Shown here: positions 1-61,412 of the stretch, in pieces
How positions within the stretch are numbered: the first letter of the stretch is position 1
Layout of the letters: the number at the start of each line of letters is the position of its first letter
Source: Escherichia coli
GTDB taxonomy: Bacteria; Pseudomonadota; Gammaproteobacteria; Enterobacterales; Enterobacteriaceae
Strand: one strand, 5' to 3'
Assembly: GCF_030013205.1 (NCBI RefSeq)
Contig: NZ_CP122648.1
Length of the DNA: 64,000 nucleotides
Notes under the pieces: generated by a model
What the model was told of the DNA's origin: nothing
Database searches by the model: none
The model's input: the letters and a program-made list of their open reading frames with translations, nothing else
Made by a program: the position numbers and the translations under genes

Positions 1-63
1 AGTTCCGGCCAGCAGGTTATAAATTTTTACAGTACGTGATTGTTCACTCATTCTGAATGCCAT
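1..63 (-). CDS. tfa: Tail fibre assembly protein Tfa, N-terminal 21 codons only (gene runs off window start)
   Basis: Reverse complement of 1-63 translates [21 protein letters not shown], matching lambda-type Tfa N-terminus; ATG overlaps stf stop (TAATG). Confidence 0.7.
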   Translation of the reverse strand, partial: MAFRMSEQSRTVKIYNLLAGT

Positions 64-1724
64 TATGCAAGCCTCACAATATAATTAAATGCGATGTTTT
101 TAACGGTGTTTTCCGCGTTACCAGCAGCGTTAACGGTGATGGTGTGTCCATGTGAACCAATCGCAACAGAGTGCGTATGAGCGCCAATACCAACAGTGTG
201 TGCATGTGCCCCAGCACTTGTAGCGGTACCTGATACTGAGTGGGTATGTGCGCCAGAAGAAGGCACAGTTCCATTCCCCACCACCGTGCCACTTGATGCA
301 CCATCAAGCCAGTCGAAATTCATACCTCCACTGTTTGGTCTCCTTAATGGAACGGTATGTGTATGTGCGCCAGCACTATTTGCAGTACCAGATACATTGT
401 GGGTATGTGCACCAGTGTTATTCGTTGATTTAGTACCGTAATCAAACGACGATGTGGTTTTCGTACCCAAATCCGTACTGGATGCGCTGGCACTGTGGGT
501 GTGCGATTTAATGCCATCCTGTTCCTGAGACAATACGGCCCGACCACTGGCGGGTTTGCCCTTGATTGTCCAGCCGCGCATATCTGGAATAACACCAGAA
601 GGATAGGCAATAGCCAGTTTCGGATATGCTGCCTTATCAAACGTCTGCCCCTGCATGATTGCATAACCTGCAGGTGGCGTATCTGATGGCCACGGCAGCG
701 GAACACCTGGCGGAAACGCTTCAATATTTGCCGAGCCGTCAAATTTTACGCCGTTAATTGTCCTTGCCGTTTTCAGCTTTGTTGCTGTAGCAGCATTGCC
801 GGATAGTTCGCCAGAAAGACCACCGCTGAATGTCTGTTTCGCCGCCCATGTCTGAGCTTCGTCGATAATTGGCACACGTCTTGTCGTAATCGTGCGGCTT
901 CCCGGATTTCCTGAAATGCGAACCATAAAAAAGCGGTAATTCGCTTTACTTGCAGTGCTGCGCCATACATGCATTGAGCGCCCCGTACCGAAATCATCAC
1001 TCGGACCAACTGCGATGTTTATCAGGTTGCCATCAATGACGCCCCAGTCCATACCGTCGGGAATATTGGTCATGTTATCAAGCCGAACGGTTATCAGACT
1101 GCCCGGCACAAAATCGTAGGTCTGCCAGTCCAGGCTGGTGAGTTTTGCCACTGCGCCACCGATCCCCATATTCAGGGGCAACGAAAAGGAGTTATACACT
1201 TCTCGCCATTCGGTCCATGTGCTCCCGGCGTAGACGCGCTCAAAAGTGCGCCCCTGTGTGGTTTCTGATTTCCCTGTGGTTGTGTAACGCTGCCAGACAG
1301 ATACACCATCAAAACGCCTGATTACTTCCAGTATCCCAAGCAATGTCGCCCCAGCAGCGTCCAGCATCGGACCGTTTGTCGCCTTTCCTGTAACACTGTA
1401 AATACCGGGGTCGGTTAGAACATTCAAATCACCTTCGTAATAACGGCTCTCTGACTGATGACCGACTCTTAACCACGGTTCCCACTGCGGATTTGATGCA
1501 TCCCAGCTTGCCGCAAGGCAGCGAACGTACATATTCCCACGACGAGTGGTATAACGTTGCGTTCTTCCATAATTCCCGCCTTCGAGGATCTCAAGCGTCC
1601 CCTGAGCAAAGCCGCCTTCCTCTGGATAATTGCGTTCATATGAAGCTATAGCCGAGCTACTGTTACGCCATAAACCAAGATGCTCAGCGGCTCCAAGCGT
1701 ATTCAGGTCTATAGTCGTACTCAA
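63..1724 (-). CDS. Side tail fibre protein, lambda Stf-like C-terminal region
   Basis: 553-aa ORF; C-terminal half has [52 protein letters not shown], His-rich GAHTH/GAHAH boxes and ends NYIVRLA; followed by tfa. Confidence 0.8.
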
Positions 1725-2000
1725 AGGGCGGGTAGTTCAAGAAGCTGTTCCGGAGCGTTTGTTGATGATCCCGATCTGCATAAAAATATTCTTATTTGCT
1801 ATCCGTATGGTAACTATGAATATGACAATATTATCTATGTTGAAAAGAAAACTAATGCATTGGGCGTTGTTGTGACGTATGCACAGACTGCACGAGACGA
1901 TGCTGAATAAGATACTACAGAGATAGTCCACTTTTTTGTTTATTTGTCGGGATAAAAACAAATTACCCCGACTCACCATGTATTAATCTTCCGCTTTAAG

Positions 2001-2384
2001 TTAGTCTTGTAGCTGCGCTGTCCTGCTATGCAGCAAAGCGGCGTACTTTAATGCGTCCTGTGCTTTCTGGAATTTAAGTGCATAGTCAGTGGCGATTTTT
2101 TCCAGTTCAGCGATTCGGTTGTCTTTGGTTTCCAGCCAATCAAGTAGCGCCAATACTTCAGGATCCCCGACATCCAACACTGTTACGCGTGATTTTTCAT
2201 AATGTTCGTCGGCAAGAGTTCGACCAATTTTGAAATCTCCATCATCACCATAACCGGAGCAGCCATAAACAACCTGTGCTCCAGATATTCGCTGAATTGA
2301 CATTTCTTCGCCGCAAATAGGGCATTTTGGTACTGGTGCAGGTGAATAACGTTCACGTAATGCCTGATAGTTGATTTTGCTCAT
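2001..2384 (-). CDS. Hypothetical protein, CPxCG zinc-ribbon-like motif plus predicted C-terminal coiled coil
   Basis: 127-aa ORF with ATG start, same strand as stf; no recognisable family. Confidence 0.4.
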   Translation of the reverse strand: MSKINYQALRERYSPAPVPKCPICGEEMSIQRISGAQVVYGCSGYGDDGDFKIGRTLADEHYEKSRVTVLDVGDPEVLALLDWLETKDNRIAELEKIATDYALKFQKAQDALKYAALLHSRTAQLQD

Positions 2385-2447
2385 TAAGTCGCTCTTCTTG
2401 TTTATGTTCTGAGATGGAGATCAGGGCGAACTCGCCCTGACGTTGTG

Positions 2448-2876
2448 TTATTCAGGAAATAACGCCCTGATATTTCCGGCCATCTGACTGGTTATCTGTG
2501 CGGTTGGTACTGGCTGTGACAGGGGGCGTTCTGTCCTGGTTTGTGTCACTGATAACGCCTCATCGTCAGCCCATGCAGCCAGTCGGTAAGCCTCTGCCGG
2601 ATTCATTTTCAGAAGTGCCAGCCCGGCCAGAAAAGCCACGCGTTGGCCGCTTTTGCGGGCTTCCGGTGTAAGGCTGTCCAGCCAGGCGCATGCTTCGCTT
2701 TCGTTCTTGACGGCCGCAGGCTTCAGATAGAAACTTATCTGAGTAAGTCTGAATGTGTTCAGTTGCTGGATGCACTGGCTGAAAATCCCGATGAACGGCT
2801 GGCTGTCGAAATCCTTCTGTCGACCGGGGCGCGATGGGGCGAGGTAGCGGTACTGGAGCAGCGCCGTGTTCTTCAT
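2448..2876 (-). CDS. Hypothetical ORF, possibly an orphan 3' gene fragment; 5' part is antisense to integrase fragment
   Basis: 142-aa ORF; only the part below ~2700 lies outside the integrase fragment; no convincing RBS for internal starts. Confidence 0.2.
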   Translation of the reverse strand: MKNTALLQYRYLAPSRPGRQKDFDSQPFIGIFSQCIQQLNTFRLTQISFYLKPAAVKNESEACAWLDSLTPEARKSGQRVAFLAGLALLKMNPAEAYRLAAWADDEALSVTQTRTERPLSQPVPTAQITSQMAGNIRALFPE

Positions 2877-3221
2877 TGTCGAATCACTTTTTCAAAAACG
2901 AAGAACAGCAAAAACCGTACCGTTCCTATTTCTGAAAGCCTGTTTGAAAAGATCAAAAAACGGGGCGGGAAACTGGTGTTTCCGACGCTGGATTATCCAT
3001 TGGTTCGCGATGTCATCAAAACGGTCGCATCTGATGTTCCTGACGGCCAGGCTGTTCATGCGCTGCGCCACACCTTCGCCAGTCATTTCATGATGAACGG
3101 CGGCAATATTCTGACGCTCCAGAAAATTCTGGGGCACGCAAAGATTCAGACAACGATGATTTATGCCCATCTTGCGCCGGATTACTTGCAGGATGCGGTG
3201 AGATTTAATCCAATAGCTTGA
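2730..3221 (+). pseudogene. Tyrosine recombinase (P2 Int family), C-terminal catalytic domain only; N-terminal half absent
   Basis: Motifs LSTGARWGE, HALRHTFASHFM, LGHAKIQTTMIYAHL resemble P2 integrase C-terminal half; frames upstream of ~2700 show no integrase-like sequence. Confidence 0.65.
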
Positions 3222-3231
3222 AGGTAGGAAA

Positions 3232-3615
3232 ATGAAAGATATTGAACATTCAGGGGAAATGGAAAAGAAAAAACGGGAGTTTATTAAAAAACTGGAATCG
3301 ATAACGCCAAGAGAATTCTTCCGTTTTTTAAATGAAAAAAACGTCACTGTGGTTTGCCTTGGGTGCGGACTGAAAGATACCCAGATAACTGCCACTACAG
3401 GTAAGTTAAATCTCCAACAACTCCTGGATGGTGAAAAAGGGGAAGAGTTTATGACGTACTTCAGGCTTGAACCAGGTCACCCAGGTGATAGTGATGCGAA
3501 TTATTACTACAAATCTTTTTGTGAGAACTGCGGTTATATAACTATGCATGCAGTGACTCCGGTATTGAACTGGTTGGGATCGCAAAAAAACCAGGAAGGG
3601 TCAGGTGATGAATGA
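3232..3615 (+). CDS. Hypothetical protein with two CxxC pairs (zinc-ribbon-like), low-GC cargo gene
   Basis: 127-aa ORF, AGGTAGGA RBS 5-12 nt upstream of ATG, 10 nt after integrase stop; CLGC and CENC motifs. Confidence 0.55.
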   Translation: MKDIEHSGEMEKKKREFIKKLESITPREFFRFLNEKNVTVVCLGCGLKDTQITATTGKLNLQQLLDGEKGEEFMTYFRLEPGHPGDSDANYYYKSFCENCGYITMHAVTPVLNWLGSQKNQEGSGDE

Positions 3616-3907
3616 GTATACTTATATCACGGGTTTTTCCATTCCGTATCCAGGAGGAATTCAGGTGAGCAATCGCAGAAGTCAGGCAAGTCGTGATGAG
3701 TTCGCTCTTGATAGCCGTGTTGCACGAATGGAGTCTGATATCTCATACATCAAGAGAGATATTGAAGAGCTGAAGAGCGATCTCAAGGATGTGAGAGGCG
3801 ATATTGATAAGATACGCACAACAGATTTCAGGCTCATGTTTGGTGCGTTGATTACTACAGCCTTGGGGTTAGCTGGCTTAATGGCGAGAGGTTTTCACTG
3901 GATTTAA
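3605..3907 (+). CDS. Hypothetical small membrane protein: coiled coil plus C-terminal transmembrane anchor
   Basis: 99-100-aa ORF (GTG 3605 or ATG 3608) overlapping upstream stop (ATGAATGA); AGGAAGG RBS; hydrophobic C-terminus FGALITTALGLAGLMARGF. Confidence 0.55.
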   Translation: MMNEYTYITGFSIPYPGGIQVSNRRSQASRDEFALDSRVARMESDISYIKRDIEELKSDLKDVRGDIDKIRTTDFRLMFGALITTALGLAGLMARGFHWI

Positions 3908-7967: not shown

Positions 7968-9443
<1,476 letters not shown>

Positions 9444-9446
9444 AGG

Positions 9447-9638
9447 CTACTTGGTCAACAGCAGCTTGCCAGCCTGAGTTTTACGGAGCAGATATTCTTG
9501 CCCGTCATGATCGATAATCAGTTTGCCATCCGGACCTAACAGTGTCTGGCTGGTAATTCGCCGAATGGGCTGTGGGGAAGCGGTCTTGTGATTGGCATCC
9601 GTTTCAGGCGTGAGTTTTCTGCTATCCGTATAACGCAT
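9447..9638 (-). CDS. ydiE: HemP-like small protein
   Basis: 63-aa protein from internal ATG of 72-aa ORF (MRYTDSRK...), matches K-12 YdiE. Confidence 0.8.
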
Positions 9639-49694: not shown

Positions 49695-50507
49695 ATGATC
49701 ATTACACGAGCAGACCTGCGAGAATGGCGTATCGGAGCGGTGATGTATCGCTGGTTCCTGCGCCATTTCCCACGCGGCGGTAGTTATGCCGATATTCATC
49801 ATGCACTGATTGAGGAAGGATATACGGACTGGGCGGAGAGTCTGGTTGAGTATGCGTGGAAAAAATGGCTGGCGGATGAAAACTTCGCGCATCAGGAAGT
49901 TTCCTCTATGCAAAAATTGGCCACAGATCCCGGAGAGAGAGCATTTTGTAGTCAGTTTGCCCGCAGCGACGATCATGCTCGCATCGGCTGTTGTGACGAT
50001 AACGCCAGAATCGCAACCGCTGGGTATGCTGCACAAATTGCCAGTATGGGTTATAGCGTGCGGATTGGAAGTGTCGGCTTTAACAGTCACATTGGCAGCT
50101 CCGGTGAGCGTGCACGGGTTGCTGTAACCGGCAATTCTTCGCGGATAAGCAGCGCTGGAGATAGTAGTCGGATTGCGAATACCGGAATGCGAGTACGCGT
50201 TTGTACATTGGGTGAACGGTGTCATGTCGCCAGTAATGGTGACCTGGTGCAAATCGCCAGCTTTGGCGCAAACGCCAGAATTGCCAACAGCGGCGACAAT
50301 GTATACATCATTGCCAGCGGTGAAGATTCAACAGTAGTGAGCACGGGCGTGGTCGACTCAATTATTCTCGGGCCAGGGGGAAGCGCCGCACTGGCATATC
50401 ATGACGGCGAAAGAGTTCGCTTCGCCGTCGCCATTGAAGGTGAAAACAATATTCGAGCCGGAGTCCGCTATCGCCTTAATGAACAGCATCAGTTTGTTGA
50501 GTGCTGA
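49695..50507 (+). CDS. ydhT: Uncharacterised protein YdhT with tandem nonapeptide repeats
   Basis: 270-aa ORF; residues ~93-227 show 9-residue periodicity (xxxR[IV]xxxG). Confidence 0.9.
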   Translation: MIITRADLREWRIGAVMYRWFLRHFPRGGSYADIHHALIEEGYTDWAESLVEYAWKKWLADENFAHQEVSSMQKLATDPGERAFCSQFARSDDHARIGCCDDNARIATAGYAAQIASMGYSVRIGSVGFNSHIGSSGERARVAVTGNSSRISSAGDSSRIANTGMRVRVCTLGERCHVASNGDLVQIASFGANARIANSGDNVYIIASGEDSTVVSTGVVDSIILGPGGSAALAYHDGERVRFAVAIEGENNIRAGVRYRLNEQHQFVEC

Positions 50508-50512
50508 TAGCT

Positions 50513-52123
50513 TTACATTTGATTAAACGAAAGACGCTGACGAGCACGGGATGCAGGCTTTACGACCGCCTGAGCCATCGCCTCACCAATTTCTGCACAT
50601 GCCGTAAGTCCCTGTACGAATGGCTGGTCGTGCATCAACCAGGGCAACGCGCCGAACGCTACGCGCCCACGAATTTCTTCGGGTTGCTGTAGCGTATAAT
50701 CTTCGCCAACATCAGGGATTTCATCCCCTGTTTTCTGTAATTGTTCGCGTAGTCCAGGGAAAGGAATATCTTTCACTTTAAGCGGACGCTGCCCGCGGGC
50801 ATCAATAAAAACGTCAAACGAGTAGCTGTTGTCTTCCGTTTTCAGGACGGTGCGCGACTCATTAATTTCCATTTCGTAGTCTTCACCGAGGGCGAGAATA
50901 TGAATGATTCCCGCTTCACGTAAGGCCAGCAGCCGACGAATAGACTCTGAAGGGATTGCCGCATAATTATCGATGAAAACCCGGGCAAGGCTTTTACTGA
51001 ACCGTTTATGGTCGAGTTCATTCAGATGAGGAACAATTTCCTGTACGGCTTCATGCAGGCGCAGAATGACATAACGCCAGGGAACAGTATGTTTTTCTCG
51101 TTTATTGCGTTCGACTTCCTGGAGATTTTTTTCTGCCCAGTCGAACGGGTCGCGTTGTTTGCGCTCGGCAAACCAGGCTTGAGCAAAGGAATCGACATTC
51201 AGGCTTTCTAAGGCTATGCGTTGGCTCCAGTCTGGATCAGCAAATTTGATTTCCTCTACTATCAATCTAAATACCCGATCCAAAAGGCCCTCTTCGCCTT
51301 TTTGAATCTCAGCATTTAATGCTTGATCAGTGACGATGTGTAAGGGCTCGTAGGGAATAGGGCAATAGAAATCGGCTTCGGGTAGAATACCTGTGCGCGA
51401 CATTAACGTAATATTTAGCTTTTCACTTGCGTTATCGCGGTGAAAAATGACGTGTTGTTTATCATCTTCAATGAACGAACCATGCTGAATAGCCACTGCC
51501 ATTGCCGCATCTAGTCCGCTCAAGGATGTTCCCATAATACCCACGTTACACGCATCGACCTTTGCTTCCATCAGGCCTGACCACGGGCTGGGAAAATACG
51601 TTCTGGTTGCTTCTTCTTCATCAGGCCAGACGTGACCCGTCGCGATCACTGCTAAATCAAACGTCTCGCTGGGTAAATCCTGATTTGTAGCGAGCATGAC
51701 GCCAGCATTTATAATTTGCAGATCGGTAACCTGGCATGATTCATAAACAGCCACTGCAAATTTTTGCTGTCGTGCCTGGTCTACTAATCGTAAAAATTGA
51801 TCGCGGAAATATTCGCCCAGCAGAATTCGCGGTAAAAACTGACGATCGTGCAAGGTTTCTTTTTTAACGCCATAACGCTGGAGATGGCTGGCTTCTTGCT
51901 TTTGTAGCCATTCGAGATACGTACAATAAATCGGCGGTATTTCAATACTGGCAATATTTGCCAGCATCATTTTTGAGTTTTCCTCATCACTGTATGGCAT
52001 CCCGACACCGGCTTCATCAGCCTGCTCGAAGATAGAAATAGAAAGTGGAGTTTGTTGCTGTAGAAGCGAGAATAAGGTGTAGATCCCCGTAGGCCCGGCA
52101 CCCACAATAGCAATTTTTTTCAT
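50513..52123 (-). CDS. ydhS: FAD/NAD(P)-binding protein of unknown function
   Basis: 536-aa ORF with N-terminal GAGPTG dinucleotide-binding motif. Confidence 0.9.
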   Translation of the reverse strand: MKKIAIVGAGPTGIYTLFSLLQQQTPLSISIFEQADEAGVGMPYSDEENSKMMLANIASIEIPPIYCTYLEWLQKQEASHLQRYGVKKETLHDRQFLPRILLGEYFRDQFLRLVDQARQQKFAVAVYESCQVTDLQIINAGVMLATNQDLPSETFDLAVIATGHVWPDEEEATRTYFPSPWSGLMEAKVDACNVGIMGTSLSGLDAAMAVAIQHGSFIEDDKQHVIFHRDNASEKLNITLMSRTGILPEADFYCPIPYEPLHIVTDQALNAEIQKGEEGLLDRVFRLIVEEIKFADPDWSQRIALESLNVDSFAQAWFAERKQRDPFDWAEKNLQEVERNKREKHTVPWRYVILRLHEAVQEIVPHLNELDHKRFSKSLARVFIDNYAAIPSESIRRLLALREAGIIHILALGEDYEMEINESRTVLKTEDNSYSFDVFIDARGQRPLKVKDIPFPGLREQLQKTGDEIPDVGEDYTLQQPEEIRGRVAFGALPWLMHDQPFVQGLTACAEIGEAMAQAVVKPASRARQRLSFNQM

Positions 52124-59345: not shown

Positions 59346-59457
59346 GTATATTCTCTAAATCTCTCAATTAAACACCGCCGCAAAGTGTAGGGAGTGAAAT
59401 TAGTGTTGTGAAACGGTAATATTTGATGACTGGTTTCAAAAATTTTGCAGGCAGACT

Positions 59458-60390
59458 ATGTGGTCAGAATATTCACTCGAAGTTGTTGATGCGGTAGCGC
59501 GTAATGGTAGTTTTAGCGCTGCGGCACAGGAGTTGCATCGCGTTCCTTCTGCGGTCAGCTATACCGTGCGTCAGCTGGAAGAGTGGCTGGCGGTGCCGCT
59601 GTTTGAACGACGTCACCGTGATGTGGAACTGACCGCTGCCGGGGCGTGGTTTCTCAAAGAAGGGCGCTCTGTTGTCAAAAAAATGCAGATCACCCGGCAG
59701 CAATGTCAGCAGATAGCGAACGGCTGGCGCGGTCAGTTAGCTATCGCAGTGGATAATATTGTCAGGCCAGAACGTACACGGCAGATGATCGTTGATTTTT
59801 ATCGCCATTTTGATGATGTCGAACTTCTTGTCTTTCAGGAAGTGTTCAACGGTGTCTGGGATGCGCTTTCCGACGGGCGCGTGGAACTGGCGATTGGCGC
59901 AACACGCGCGATTCCGGTAGGCGGTCGTTATGCCTTCCGCGATATGGGGATGCTAAGCTGGAGTTGCGTTGTTGCCAGTCACCACCCGCTGGCGTTGATG
60001 GATGGCCCGTTCAGCGATGATACGTTGCGCAACTGGCCCTCGTTGGTGCGCGAAGACACCTCGCGAACGCTACCTAAACGTATTACCTGGTTGCTGGATA
60101 ACCAAAAAAGACTTGTCGTGCCTGACTGGGAATCATCGGCAACCTGTATCTCGGCAGGATTATGCATAGGGATGGTGCCAACACATTTCGCCAAACCGTG
60201 GCTTAATGAGGGGAAGTGGGTGGCACTAGAACTGGAAAACCCCTTCCCGGATTCGGCATGTTGTCTGACATGGCAGCAAAATGATATGTCGCCTGCGTTA
60301 ACCTGGTTGCTTGAGTATCTCGGCGATAGTGAGACGCTGAATAAGGAGTGGCTGCGGGAGCCGGAAGAGACTCCCGCAACGGGTGATTAA
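59458..60390 (+). CDS. punR: LysR-family transcriptional regulator
   Basis: 310-aa ORF with N-terminal LysR HTH. Confidence 0.92.
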
Positions 60391-61412
60391 CGACGATAGT
60401 CGCGGAACGGGCCGTCAGCCACGGAGCGGCGTTCAATCAACCGCGGATGCACTTCAATGGATTGCGGTTCTTCGCGTTTATTGACGATACGATCCAACAG
60501 CATGTTGAACGCCGTTTCGCCCAGCGAATCTTTTGGCTGATGGATCGTGGTCAGCGCCGGCGTAAAATAGCGGGCGTTGCGCACGTTATCATACCCGATC
60601 AGCGAAACATCCTGCGGGACGCGCAGACCCATTTCATCAGCAGCACAAAGTGCGCCCATTGCCATGATATCGCCACCACAGAAGACGGCAGTAGGGCGAT
60701 GCGGCTGCGACAGGATTTGCTGCATGGCGCGATAACCAGATTCGGGTTCAAAGTCACCCTGCACAATCCAGCTTTCCGGCACCTTGATCATCGCTTCTTC
60801 CATCGCCTTCATAAAACCGGCAAGGCGGCCTGCGCCGGTGTTACGTTCCAGCGGGCCGGGGATAACGCCGATTTCGCGGTGACCGCGTTCAATCAGATAA
60901 CGCCCGGCCATGTAGCCGCCTTCGAACGCGTTATCAATGACCGCATCGGTGAAGTCAGCTTTTGCTTCACCCCAGTCCATCACTACCATTGGGATATGGC
61001 GATACTCTTCCAGCATCGCCAGCAACGGCTCTGGGTACTCAGAACACATCACCAGCAGACCATCGACGCGTTTTTGCGCCATCATCGACAGATAAGCCCG
61101 CTGTTTCTCAAGATTGTTCCACGCATTGCCCAGAATCAGGGTGTAACCTTTCTGGAAGCAATTTTTTTCAACCGCTTCAATGATCTCGGCAAAATAGGCC
61201 GCTTCGCTGCTGGTCGCCAGCAAACCGATAGACTTGGTGTGGTTAACCTTCAGACTACGCGCCACCGCGCTAGGGGAGTAGTGTAATTCTTTGATCGCTG
61301 CCCACACGGCGTTGCGCGTTTCTTCAGCGACGAAACGTGTTTTGTTGATCACGTGTGACACAGTTGTAGTGGAAACGTTTGCTCGTTTCGCTACATCTTT
61401 TATTGTTGCCAT
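60387..61412 (-). CDS. purR: Purine repressor (LacI family)
   Basis: 341-aa [26 protein letters not shown]... Confidence 0.97.

Follow-up and report, generated by a model that had tools for sequence, protein, structure and literature searches.

Overlapping stop codons of punR and purR in Escherichia coli: a probable by-product of stop-codon loss within a conserved hairpin at the 3' end of purR mRNA

The convergent genes punR and purR of Escherichia coli end on the same four nucleotides. A comparison of this junction across the Enterobacteriaceae leads us to regard the overlap as genuine and as likely to be an ordinary by-product of the loss of a punR stop codon from a hairpin loop, with a backup stop codon nearby, the hairpin being the selected element. 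The locus lies in a 64,000-nt stretch of sequence (contig NZ_CP122648.1), here called the window, which is a piece of the E. coli chromosome that is inverted with respect to K-12 and carries prophage remnants, btuCED, selO, the suf genes, the ydh genes, punC-punR-purR, and ydhP. Window coordinates are obtained by subtracting the K-12 coordinate from 1799256, a conversion that was confirmed by an exact sequence match. The two genes and the nucleotides that they share are as follows.

59458-60390, + strand: punR (ydhB) coding sequence, 310 amino acids, a LysR-type activator of punC (open reading frame and RefSeq; function from PMC8376909)
60387-61412, - strand: purR coding sequence, 341 amino acids, the purine repressor (open reading frame and RefSeq)
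60387-60390, no strand assigned: shared tetramer TTAA, with the punR stop codon at 60388-60390 and the purR stop codon formed by the complement of 60387-60389

The sequence at 60385-60392 reads GAT-TAA-CG, in the context GGT GAT TAA CGA CG on the + strand. The TTAA at 60387-60390 is common to both stop codons, and base 60390 pairs with the third position of the last Arg codon (CGT) of purR. An earlier sequence-only reading of this DNA had proposed a 4-nt stop-codon overlap at exactly this position, and the sequence and the RefSeq annotation agree on it: the same 4-nt overlap is annotated in K_EC180 and in MG1655, where purR occupies 1737844..1738869 (+) and punR occupies 1738866..1739798 (-). 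Both genes are annotated and have been characterized experimentally, which makes the pair a member of the YTAR class of 4-bp convergent overlaps. Of 5423 complete E. coli genomes, 5393 match the 101 nt spanning the junction with an identity of at least 99%.

Overlaps of this kind are well documented. In E. coli, 58 convergent overlaps were counted by Lillo and Krakauer (2007; PMC2174442), who gave 4 bp as the modal length, listed TTAA, TTAG, CTAA, and CTAG as the tetramers in which two opposite-strand genes can end, and discussed stop-codon mutation as an origin of convergent overlaps. The 4-bp class is expected because the complement of TAA is TTA, which, when shifted by one base to the right, reads TAN, and TAN is a stop codon whenever the last sense codon of the neighboring gene ends in T or C. 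The last sense codon of purR is Arg CGT in the window and is CGT or CGC in every related locus. Within approximately 73 kb of annotated K_EC180 sequence overlapping the window, there are ten convergent gene pairs, three of which have stop codons no more than 5 nt apart, namely, selO/hemP (3 nt), ydhT/ydhS (5 nt), and punR/purR (-4 nt), with distances of 39 to 145 nt for the other pairs. The selO/hemP stops, at 9441-9449, make up a third tight pair in the window that the earlier reading had not listed. The punR/purR overlap is no more than chance would give; it is real, ordinary, and already catalogued. Like the overlaps described by Lillo and Krakauer, it belongs to the TTAA/TTAG/CTAA/CTAG class, but here, unlike in that study (PMC2174442), 78 species reveal where the presumed ancestral stop lay, which stop serves as the backup, and how the two have switched repeatedly.

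For this comparison, punR-purR junctions were taken from 80 species-level Enterobacteriaceae genomes, 78 of which could be measured, and stop-to-stop distances were derived from retranslation starting at the start codon. The distance is +14 to +22 nt at 45 of the 78 loci and -4 nt at 27; three further loci have a distance of +1 nt, and distances of +3, +5, and +45 nt were found at one locus each. The gene order punC-punR-purR is conserved, and PurR has 341 amino acids at all 78 loci. PunR has 310 amino acids at each of the 27 overlapping loci and 303 amino acids at 50 of the 78; every one of the 45 loci with a distance of +14 to +22 nt belongs to these 50, and so does the +45 locus. Apparent overlaps of 53 to 702 nt in Pluralibacter, Kosakonia, Phytobacter, and Klebsiella were rejected as a tblastn artefact, as the alignments had run past an in-frame stop codon, and they were gone upon retranslation. 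At a few loci whose spacers measure 16, 18, or 19 nt, the next stop codon past that of punR lies 53 to 702 nt inside the purR antisense sequence, a rough indication that was taken in the frame of the tblastn match. Stops lying that far inside purR fit the absence of intermediate overlaps.

The longer form of PunR differs from the 303-residue form by a short C-terminal extension.

60367-60387, + strand: punR codons 304 to 310 (E-T-P-A-T-G-D), the seven-codon tail

Codon 304 is GAG (60367-60369) in the window and TAA, TAG, or TGA at the 50 loci with a 303-residue PunR, where the stop codon sits in the loop of a hairpin, as in CGGGAGCCAG-CGTAG-CTGGCTCCCG. All of the 27 overlapping loci agree in geometry with the 17-nt class; the shared tetramer is TTAA at 22 of them and TTAG at 5. 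The seven-residue tail is poorly conserved among these loci (TPATGD, APAQQA, VPAGEA, APDSAD, PAPGRD, and others). In the course of events that we propose, punR would have started out as it is found in most genera, with 303 codons, its stop codon in the hairpin loop, and 14 to 22 nt between the punR and purR stops. The loop stop codon would then have turned into a sense codon in Escherichia, Salmonella, most of Citrobacter, and several further lineages, and with a spacing as in the 17-nt class, the punR frame would run seven codons further. The extended frame would meet a TAA or TAG composed of the complement of the purR TAA and the complement of the third base of the Arg codon (CGT or CGC), and this would create the 4-nt overlap.

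A neighbor-joining tree built from punR and purR implies at least eight changes between the stop and sense states at codon 304. The -4 overlap is common to Escherichia, Salmonella, and most Citrobacter; within Citrobacter, there are reversals in the C. gillenii group (+17 nt) and in Citrobacter sp. MGH106 (+5 nt), and separate occurrences of the overlap are found in Trabulsiella, Pluralibacter, Pseudocitrobacter, and Silvania/Leclercia. Judging from these sequence comparisons, the overlap is recurrent and probably derived, and it is probably a neutral result of stop-codon loss. Midpoint rooting assigns a stop codon to position 304 at the root of this two-gene tree, which covers the Enterobacteriaceae only. 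We infer that the direction of change was stop loss rather than stop gain, and the overlapping state could be older than this rooting suggests.

The element that surrounds codon 304 was delineated by folding and by conservation.

60351-60380, - strand: GC-rich hairpin in the purR 3' untranslated region, inside punR codons 298 to 308

In the purR sense, a 5' arm (60380-60369), a loop (60368-60363), and a 3' arm (60362-60351) form a stem of 12 bp, including G-U pairs, that lies about 10 nt downstream of the purR stop codon, as at all of the Enterobacteriaceae loci compared, and within the last 40 nt of punR. Its predicted folding energy in E. coli is -23.8 kcal/mol (z = -5.45), and none of 200 shuffled sequences folded as well. 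On the + strand, a shorter 8-bp version can form between 60353-60360 and 60371-60378, and in E. coli, this version is the weaker of the two (-15.9 versus -23.2 kcal/mol; z = -1.6). The hairpin was present at all 77 loci that were folded over a uniform segment, whatever their spacing class, with a mean of about -20 kcal/mol on either strand (two-strand means across species of -19.3 versus -20.1 kcal/mol). The purR sense was favored at 45 loci versus 32, with a P value of 0.07 for loci that are not phylogenetically independent.

Covariation argues that the base pairing itself has been maintained. It was counted on the 27-sequence subset with identical geometry because a MAFFT alignment of all 78 junctions, in which the loop length varies, was out of structural register. 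Compensatory double changes were found at 3 of 10 pairs, one of which is seen as C-G, A-U, and U-A. There were 21 compensated cells versus 7.6 ± 1.7 when partners were shuffled, none of 500 shuffles giving as many, and controls in which the partner was slid by one to three columns gave no more than three. The stems of other genera are made of other sequences, such as GGACGCC/GGCGTCC, GGACACCC/GGGTGTCC, GGGAGCAG/CTGCTCCC, and GCGAACGC/GCGTTCGC. Several of the changes replace the Glu of PunR codon 301 by Ala, Val, or Thr, with a matching change in the opposite arm. That amino-acid-altering changes in the stem are compensated shows that the structure is conserved in preference to the peptide. A search of Rfam with both strands of 60000-60800 gave no match at an E value of ≤1. 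The PunR operator, a 23-bp palindrome (TsttwTCAAwAwwwTTGaaGGCA), has no match at the punR/purR junction, and the window contains a single match, which is the known site upstream of punC and punR (59431-59453).

In the purR transcript, the hairpin coincides with a 3' end that has been mapped by two independent methods.

61569, - strand: purR transcription start (K-12 1737687; SMRT-Cappable-seq)
60348-60349, - strand: steady-state purR mRNA 3' end (K-12 1738908 and 1738907; Term-seq and SMRT-Cappable-seq)

The Term-seq data of Adams et al. (2021; PMC7815308, Supplementary file 1) contain a 3' end at 1738907 in LB at an OD of 0.4, classed as "primary (purR), antisense (ydhB)," and a second entry at 1738908 on a later sheet, which we take to be the M63 condition. 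The sequence strings given there consist of 50 nt, the 3' end, and 10 nt, a layout that was confirmed on sgrS. SMRT-Cappable-seq (Yan et al. 2018; PMC6131387, Supplementary Data 1) reports a primary transcript running from a start site at 1737687 to a termination site at 1738908 in both M9 and rich medium. In M9, 266 reads were recorded at the start site, 120 ended at the termination site, and 24 passed through it with a median read-through of 36.5 nt; the corresponding values in rich medium were 143, 92, and 15 reads and 30.5 nt (PMC6131387). The 3' end is therewith located 2 to 3 nt past the stem, 38 to 39 nt past the purR stop codon, and 42 to 43 nt inside the punR coding sequence.

The 12-bp stem is of the GC-rich kind found in intrinsic terminators, but the U tract of 7 to 8 nt that should come after such a stem is missing, the sequence at this position being CACUCCUUAUUC, and a scan of the - strand at the junction with a terminator consensus found none. 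With no U tract behind its stem, the hairpin cannot be classed as a canonical intrinsic terminator. What characterizes a protective stem-loop is a steady-state 3' end that is precise and lies just past a stable stem-loop without a U tract. As described by Dar and Sorek (2018; PMC6061677), Rho-dependent transcripts acquire precise ends right after stable stem-loops that lack a U tract, sometimes inside the next gene, through trimming by exonucleases. The purR end resembles those ends in its GC-rich stem-loop, its precision, the missing U tract, and a location that may be within the coding sequence of the next gene. However, those transcripts are Rho dependent, whereas purR is likened to them by its structure and 3' end, and the Rho termination regions listed by Adams et al. 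(PMC7815308, Supplementary file 2) include none near 17386xx-17389xx. A C>G bias downstream of the purR 3' end was considered as evidence for a rut site and rejected, as it merely mirrors the antisense composition of punR. We infer a role for the hairpin in forming or protecting the purR 3' end. Most likely, purR mRNA would terminate shortly downstream of the hairpin and would then be trimmed back to the stem by exonucleases; termination that depends on the hairpin and is assisted by collision would be the less likely mechanism. The sequence-only reading had concluded that the two genes leave no room for a terminator. This is correct for the intergenic space, which is nil, but it overlooks the end of the punR coding sequence, which harbors a conserved hairpin marking the 3' end of purR.

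The short median read-through (30 to 37 nt) would also fit termination at the hairpin itself, and the hairpin could then be a true bidirectional terminator, at which both polymerases pause, head-on and trailing collisions finish termination, and the transcripts overlap only across the stem-loop of about 30 nt. One described class of hairpins found between convergent genes belongs neither to the canonical intrinsic terminators nor to the Rho-dependent ones (bioRxiv 10.1101/2022.10.23.513370). Like the elements reported by Ju et al. (2019) and Wang et al. (bioRxiv 10.1101/2022.10.23.513370), the purR hairpin is a noncanonical palindrome between convergent genes that folds in both transcripts, with similar energy on the two strands across species; unlike them, it lies inside one of the coding sequences, and of the two 3' ends, only that of purR is mapped. 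The missing U tract, the absence of a listed Rho region at this place, and a read-through of purR that is both rare and short (in M9, 24 of 266 reads with a median of 36.5 nt) are all in keeping with such a terminator. However, the punR stop codon lies 10 nt beyond the + strand stem in E. coli, and a punR transcript ending at that stem (about 60380) would be without its stop codon (60388-60390), so that read-through is needed. In addition, the + strand hairpin of E. coli is the weaker one, collisions should be rare given the low expression of punR, and a 3' end 2 to 3 nt from the stem fits exonuclease trimming equally well. In our view, bidirectional termination is rather unlikely.

Whichever way the purR 3' end is formed, its position has a consequence for the pairing of the two mRNAs.

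60349-60390, no strand assigned: minimum complementary region of the punR and purR mRNAs, 42 nt (from the mapped purR 3' end and the punR stop codon)

Since purR mRNA reaches 60349 and a complete punR mRNA must reach 60390, the two transcripts would be complementary over at least 42 nt, which is a lower bound. The Term-seq and SMRT-Cappable-seq tables contain no punR 3' end, punR transcripts being too scarce (PMC7815308, PMC6131387), and the + strand downstream of punR offers only weak terminator-like hairpins, at 60463-60476 and 60516-60528. Table 1 of the ExcludonFinder paper (Sanmartin et al. 2025; PMC12288877) names purR-punR, ydhS-ydhT, and ydiE(hemP)-selO, which belong to the 165 convergent excludons found in MG1655, and in most convergent excludon pairs, the terminator is situated inside the neighbor's transcription unit (PMC12288877). 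The earlier claim that the transcripts at these tight junctions must overlap is thus borne out, for purR by a 3' end 42 to 43 nt inside the punR coding sequence and for both purR-punR and ydhS-ydhT by the ExcludonFinder listing. With its published purR 3' end and its place in the MG1655 excludome, the punR/purR pair has the overlapping transcripts that are one mark of a convergent excludon. While the ExcludonFinder catalogue (PMC12288877) names this same pair as a case of convergent overlapping transcription, it was derived from RNA-seq coverage, and the conserved hairpin and the switching stop codon are not described there.

The antisense interference for which the sequence-only reading took this overlap to allow is unsupported. 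It is conceivable that the pair forms a functional excludon, in which the 3' ends of purR and punR pair or the polymerases collide and the expression of the repressor and that of the uptake activator inhibit each other in cis. Besides the entry in the E. coli excludome list (PMC12288877), the overlap of at least 42 nt that the mapped purR 3' end enforces and the conserved order of punC, punR, and purR would agree with this, as would the shared physiology of the genes, since adenosine changes purR mRNA by a log2 value of -1.37 and punC by +1.58. However, this inverse response is explained by known regulation, the drop of purR with purines by PurR autoregulation and the induction of punC by PunR/Nac activation (PMC8376909). 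Furthermore, RNA-seq of an MG1655 punR deletion, in one comparison under one condition, revealed a change in punC mRNA only (PMC8376909), the coding overlap is absent from 51 of the 78 related loci and has switched at least eight times, punR transcripts were too few for the Term-seq or SMRT-Cappable-seq tables to include a 3' end, and the ExcludonFinder listing rests on RNA-seq coverage, with no test of regulation. We consider a functional excludon quite unlikely. The sense/antisense overlap of at least 42 nt would be expected to have little regulatory effect, and a meaningful cis-antisense effect of the purR/punR overlap is improbable. We give very little credence to a further reading, according to which the hairpin is a 3'-end element shared by both regulators whose working is altered by the stop state of punR, linking PunR output and possibly purR mRNA stability in cis. 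If this were true, ribosomes in Escherichia could complete punR only by passing through the hairpin and unfolding it, any punR mRNA that had been trimmed to the hairpin would be without a stop codon, and the duplex of at least 42 nt might affect the stability of purR mRNA. Purine repression and purine-nucleoside uptake would then be adjusted against each other through their RNAs in the Escherichia/Salmonella/Citrobacter lineage and not in Klebsiella or Enterobacter. Least credible of all is selection for the 4-nt overlap itself, be it for genome compaction or for coupled termination of punR and purR, which we regard as extremely improbable. The junction is almost invariant within E. coli, and the -4 state is common to the Escherichia/Salmonella/Citrobacter clade; however, invariance within the species is expected given the low divergence of the region, the overlap has reverted inside Citrobacter (+17 and +5 nt) and was gained independently elsewhere, the seven added residues are unconserved, and the tetramer class is expected from the complementarity of stop codons. 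Selection seems to act on the hairpin and not on the overlap as such.

The overlap of the punR and purR transcripts has been catalogued and is already known, short convergent overlaps like that of this pair number in the dozens in E. coli, and the biological importance of the overlap is small. The locus provides a clean, small example of a convergent overlap that would have arisen from stop-codon loss with a backup stop and of an RNA hairpin that is kept in preference to the encoded amino acids. The practical implications weigh more heavily, as purR mRNA has its 3'-end hairpin encoded within the final 40 nt of punR and the two stop codons share bases. Since the 3' ends are interleaved, some standard manipulations of punR would be expected to alter the purR 3' untranslated region or stop codon, and such alterations could confound phenotypes credited to PunR. 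Keio-type deletions leave only the last six codons plus the stop codon, and a deletion of this type in punR would be expected to remove the 3' arm of the purR hairpin. A C-terminal punR tag at the native locus, as in the strain used for PunR ChIP-exo, inserts sequence at the shared stop codon. It is of note that purR is the nearest gene of one peak, given without coordinates, in the PunR ChIP-exo table.

The second tight junction to which the sequence-only reading had drawn attention, with the ydhT and ydhS stop codons 5 nt apart, is found as claimed.

49695-50507, + strand: ydhT coding sequence
50513-52123, - strand: ydhS coding sequence, 536 amino acids in the window and 534 in K-12
50508-50512, no strand assigned: spacer of 5 nt between the ydhT and ydhS stop codons, 11 nt in K-12

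The ydhT gene ends at 50507, and the ydhS stop codon begins at 50513. The spacer of K-12 measures 11 nt because point substitutions place the ydhS stop codon two codons earlier (..SFD-stop versus ..SFNQM-stop). The junction allele of the window is rare, with 26 of 5379 genomes being at least 99% identical to it and most genomes, at 94.5%, being K-12-like. Folding of the ydhS/ydhT junction gave nothing beyond shuffled controls (z = 0.07 and -1.14), and the Term-seq and SMRT-Cappable-seq tables (PMC7815308, PMC6131387) contain no 3' ends at this junction. Within ydhS, 206 nt beyond the ydhT stop codon, the + strand carries a terminator-like hairpin followed by a U run (50713-50730).

Opposite purR, on the punR strand, lies a long open frame.

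60447-61286, plus strand, long open frame of 279 codons, antisense to purR

In relatives with spacers of 16, 18 or 19 nt, read-on beyond the punR stop could extend 53 to 702 nt antisense into purR. The overlap is confined to the 17-nt spacing class, and the long antisense read-on in the 16-, 18- and 19-nt classes may be the reason. In Enterobacter sp. kpr-6 (L036:3910-3960, one of the loci compared), the two stops are 45 nt apart, and the spacer holds an additional GC-rich inverted repeat, GCAGGCCTGCAGCG...CGCAGGCC, which appears to be an insertion adjoining the usual hairpin, i.e., the conserved one in the purR 3' UTR.

Term-seq (Adams et al. 2021) lists further 3' ends on the purR strand, at K-12 positions 1737833 and 1737952.

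61423 (K-12 1737833), minus strand, Term-seq 3' end in the purR leader, 11 nt ahead of the start codon
61304 (K-12 1737952), minus strand, Term-seq 3' end 108 nt inside the purR open reading frame

These ends suggest that purR transcripts are terminated early or processed in the leader and the first part of the coding sequence, close to the known autoregulatory operators. With regard to PunR itself, the strain used for ChIP-exo carries an 8-myc tag recombined onto the C terminus of punR (PMC8376909, methods), at the stop common to punR and purR (60387-60390). One PunR ChIP-exo peak has purR as its nearest gene, in a table that is without coordinates (PMC8376909, Supplementary Table 1); no PunR motif was found near purR within the window.

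At the convergent ydhT/ydhS pair, a terminator-like hairpin is located within the ydhS coding sequence, 206 nt downstream of the ydhT stop, and is a candidate for a ydhT operon terminator embedded in the convergent gene.

50713-50730, plus strand, terminator-like hairpin, CAGGGATTTCATCCCCTG then TTTTCTGT

The junction allele of this pair (50470-50560) is rare in E. coli, with at least 99% identity in 26 of 5379 genomes; the majority are K-12-like, with 94.5% identity to it. The ydhS stop in the window is located two codons beyond the K-12 position. The ydhS open reading frame is unbroken here. The best-matching strain, K_EC180, lacks one base at the position corresponding to 51860, and its annotation treats ydhS as a frameshifted gene.

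The stops of selO/hemP, the third closely spaced convergent pair within the window, are separated by only 3 nt (TAA-agg-CTA, 9441-9449); ydiE-selO is also among the listed excludons, convergent pairs with overlapping transcripts (PMC12288877).

8007-9443, plus strand, selO
about 9447-9638, minus strand, hemP/ydiE

Going by how the near-identical strain K_EC180 is annotated, about 1-3900 carries prophage remnants adjoining btuC, among them the following.

Within about 1-3900, tail fibre assembly and phage tail protein fragments (K_EC180 annotation)
Within about 1-3900, Ea22-like fragment (K_EC180 annotation)
Within about 1-3900, short integrase-family open reading frame (K_EC180 annotation)
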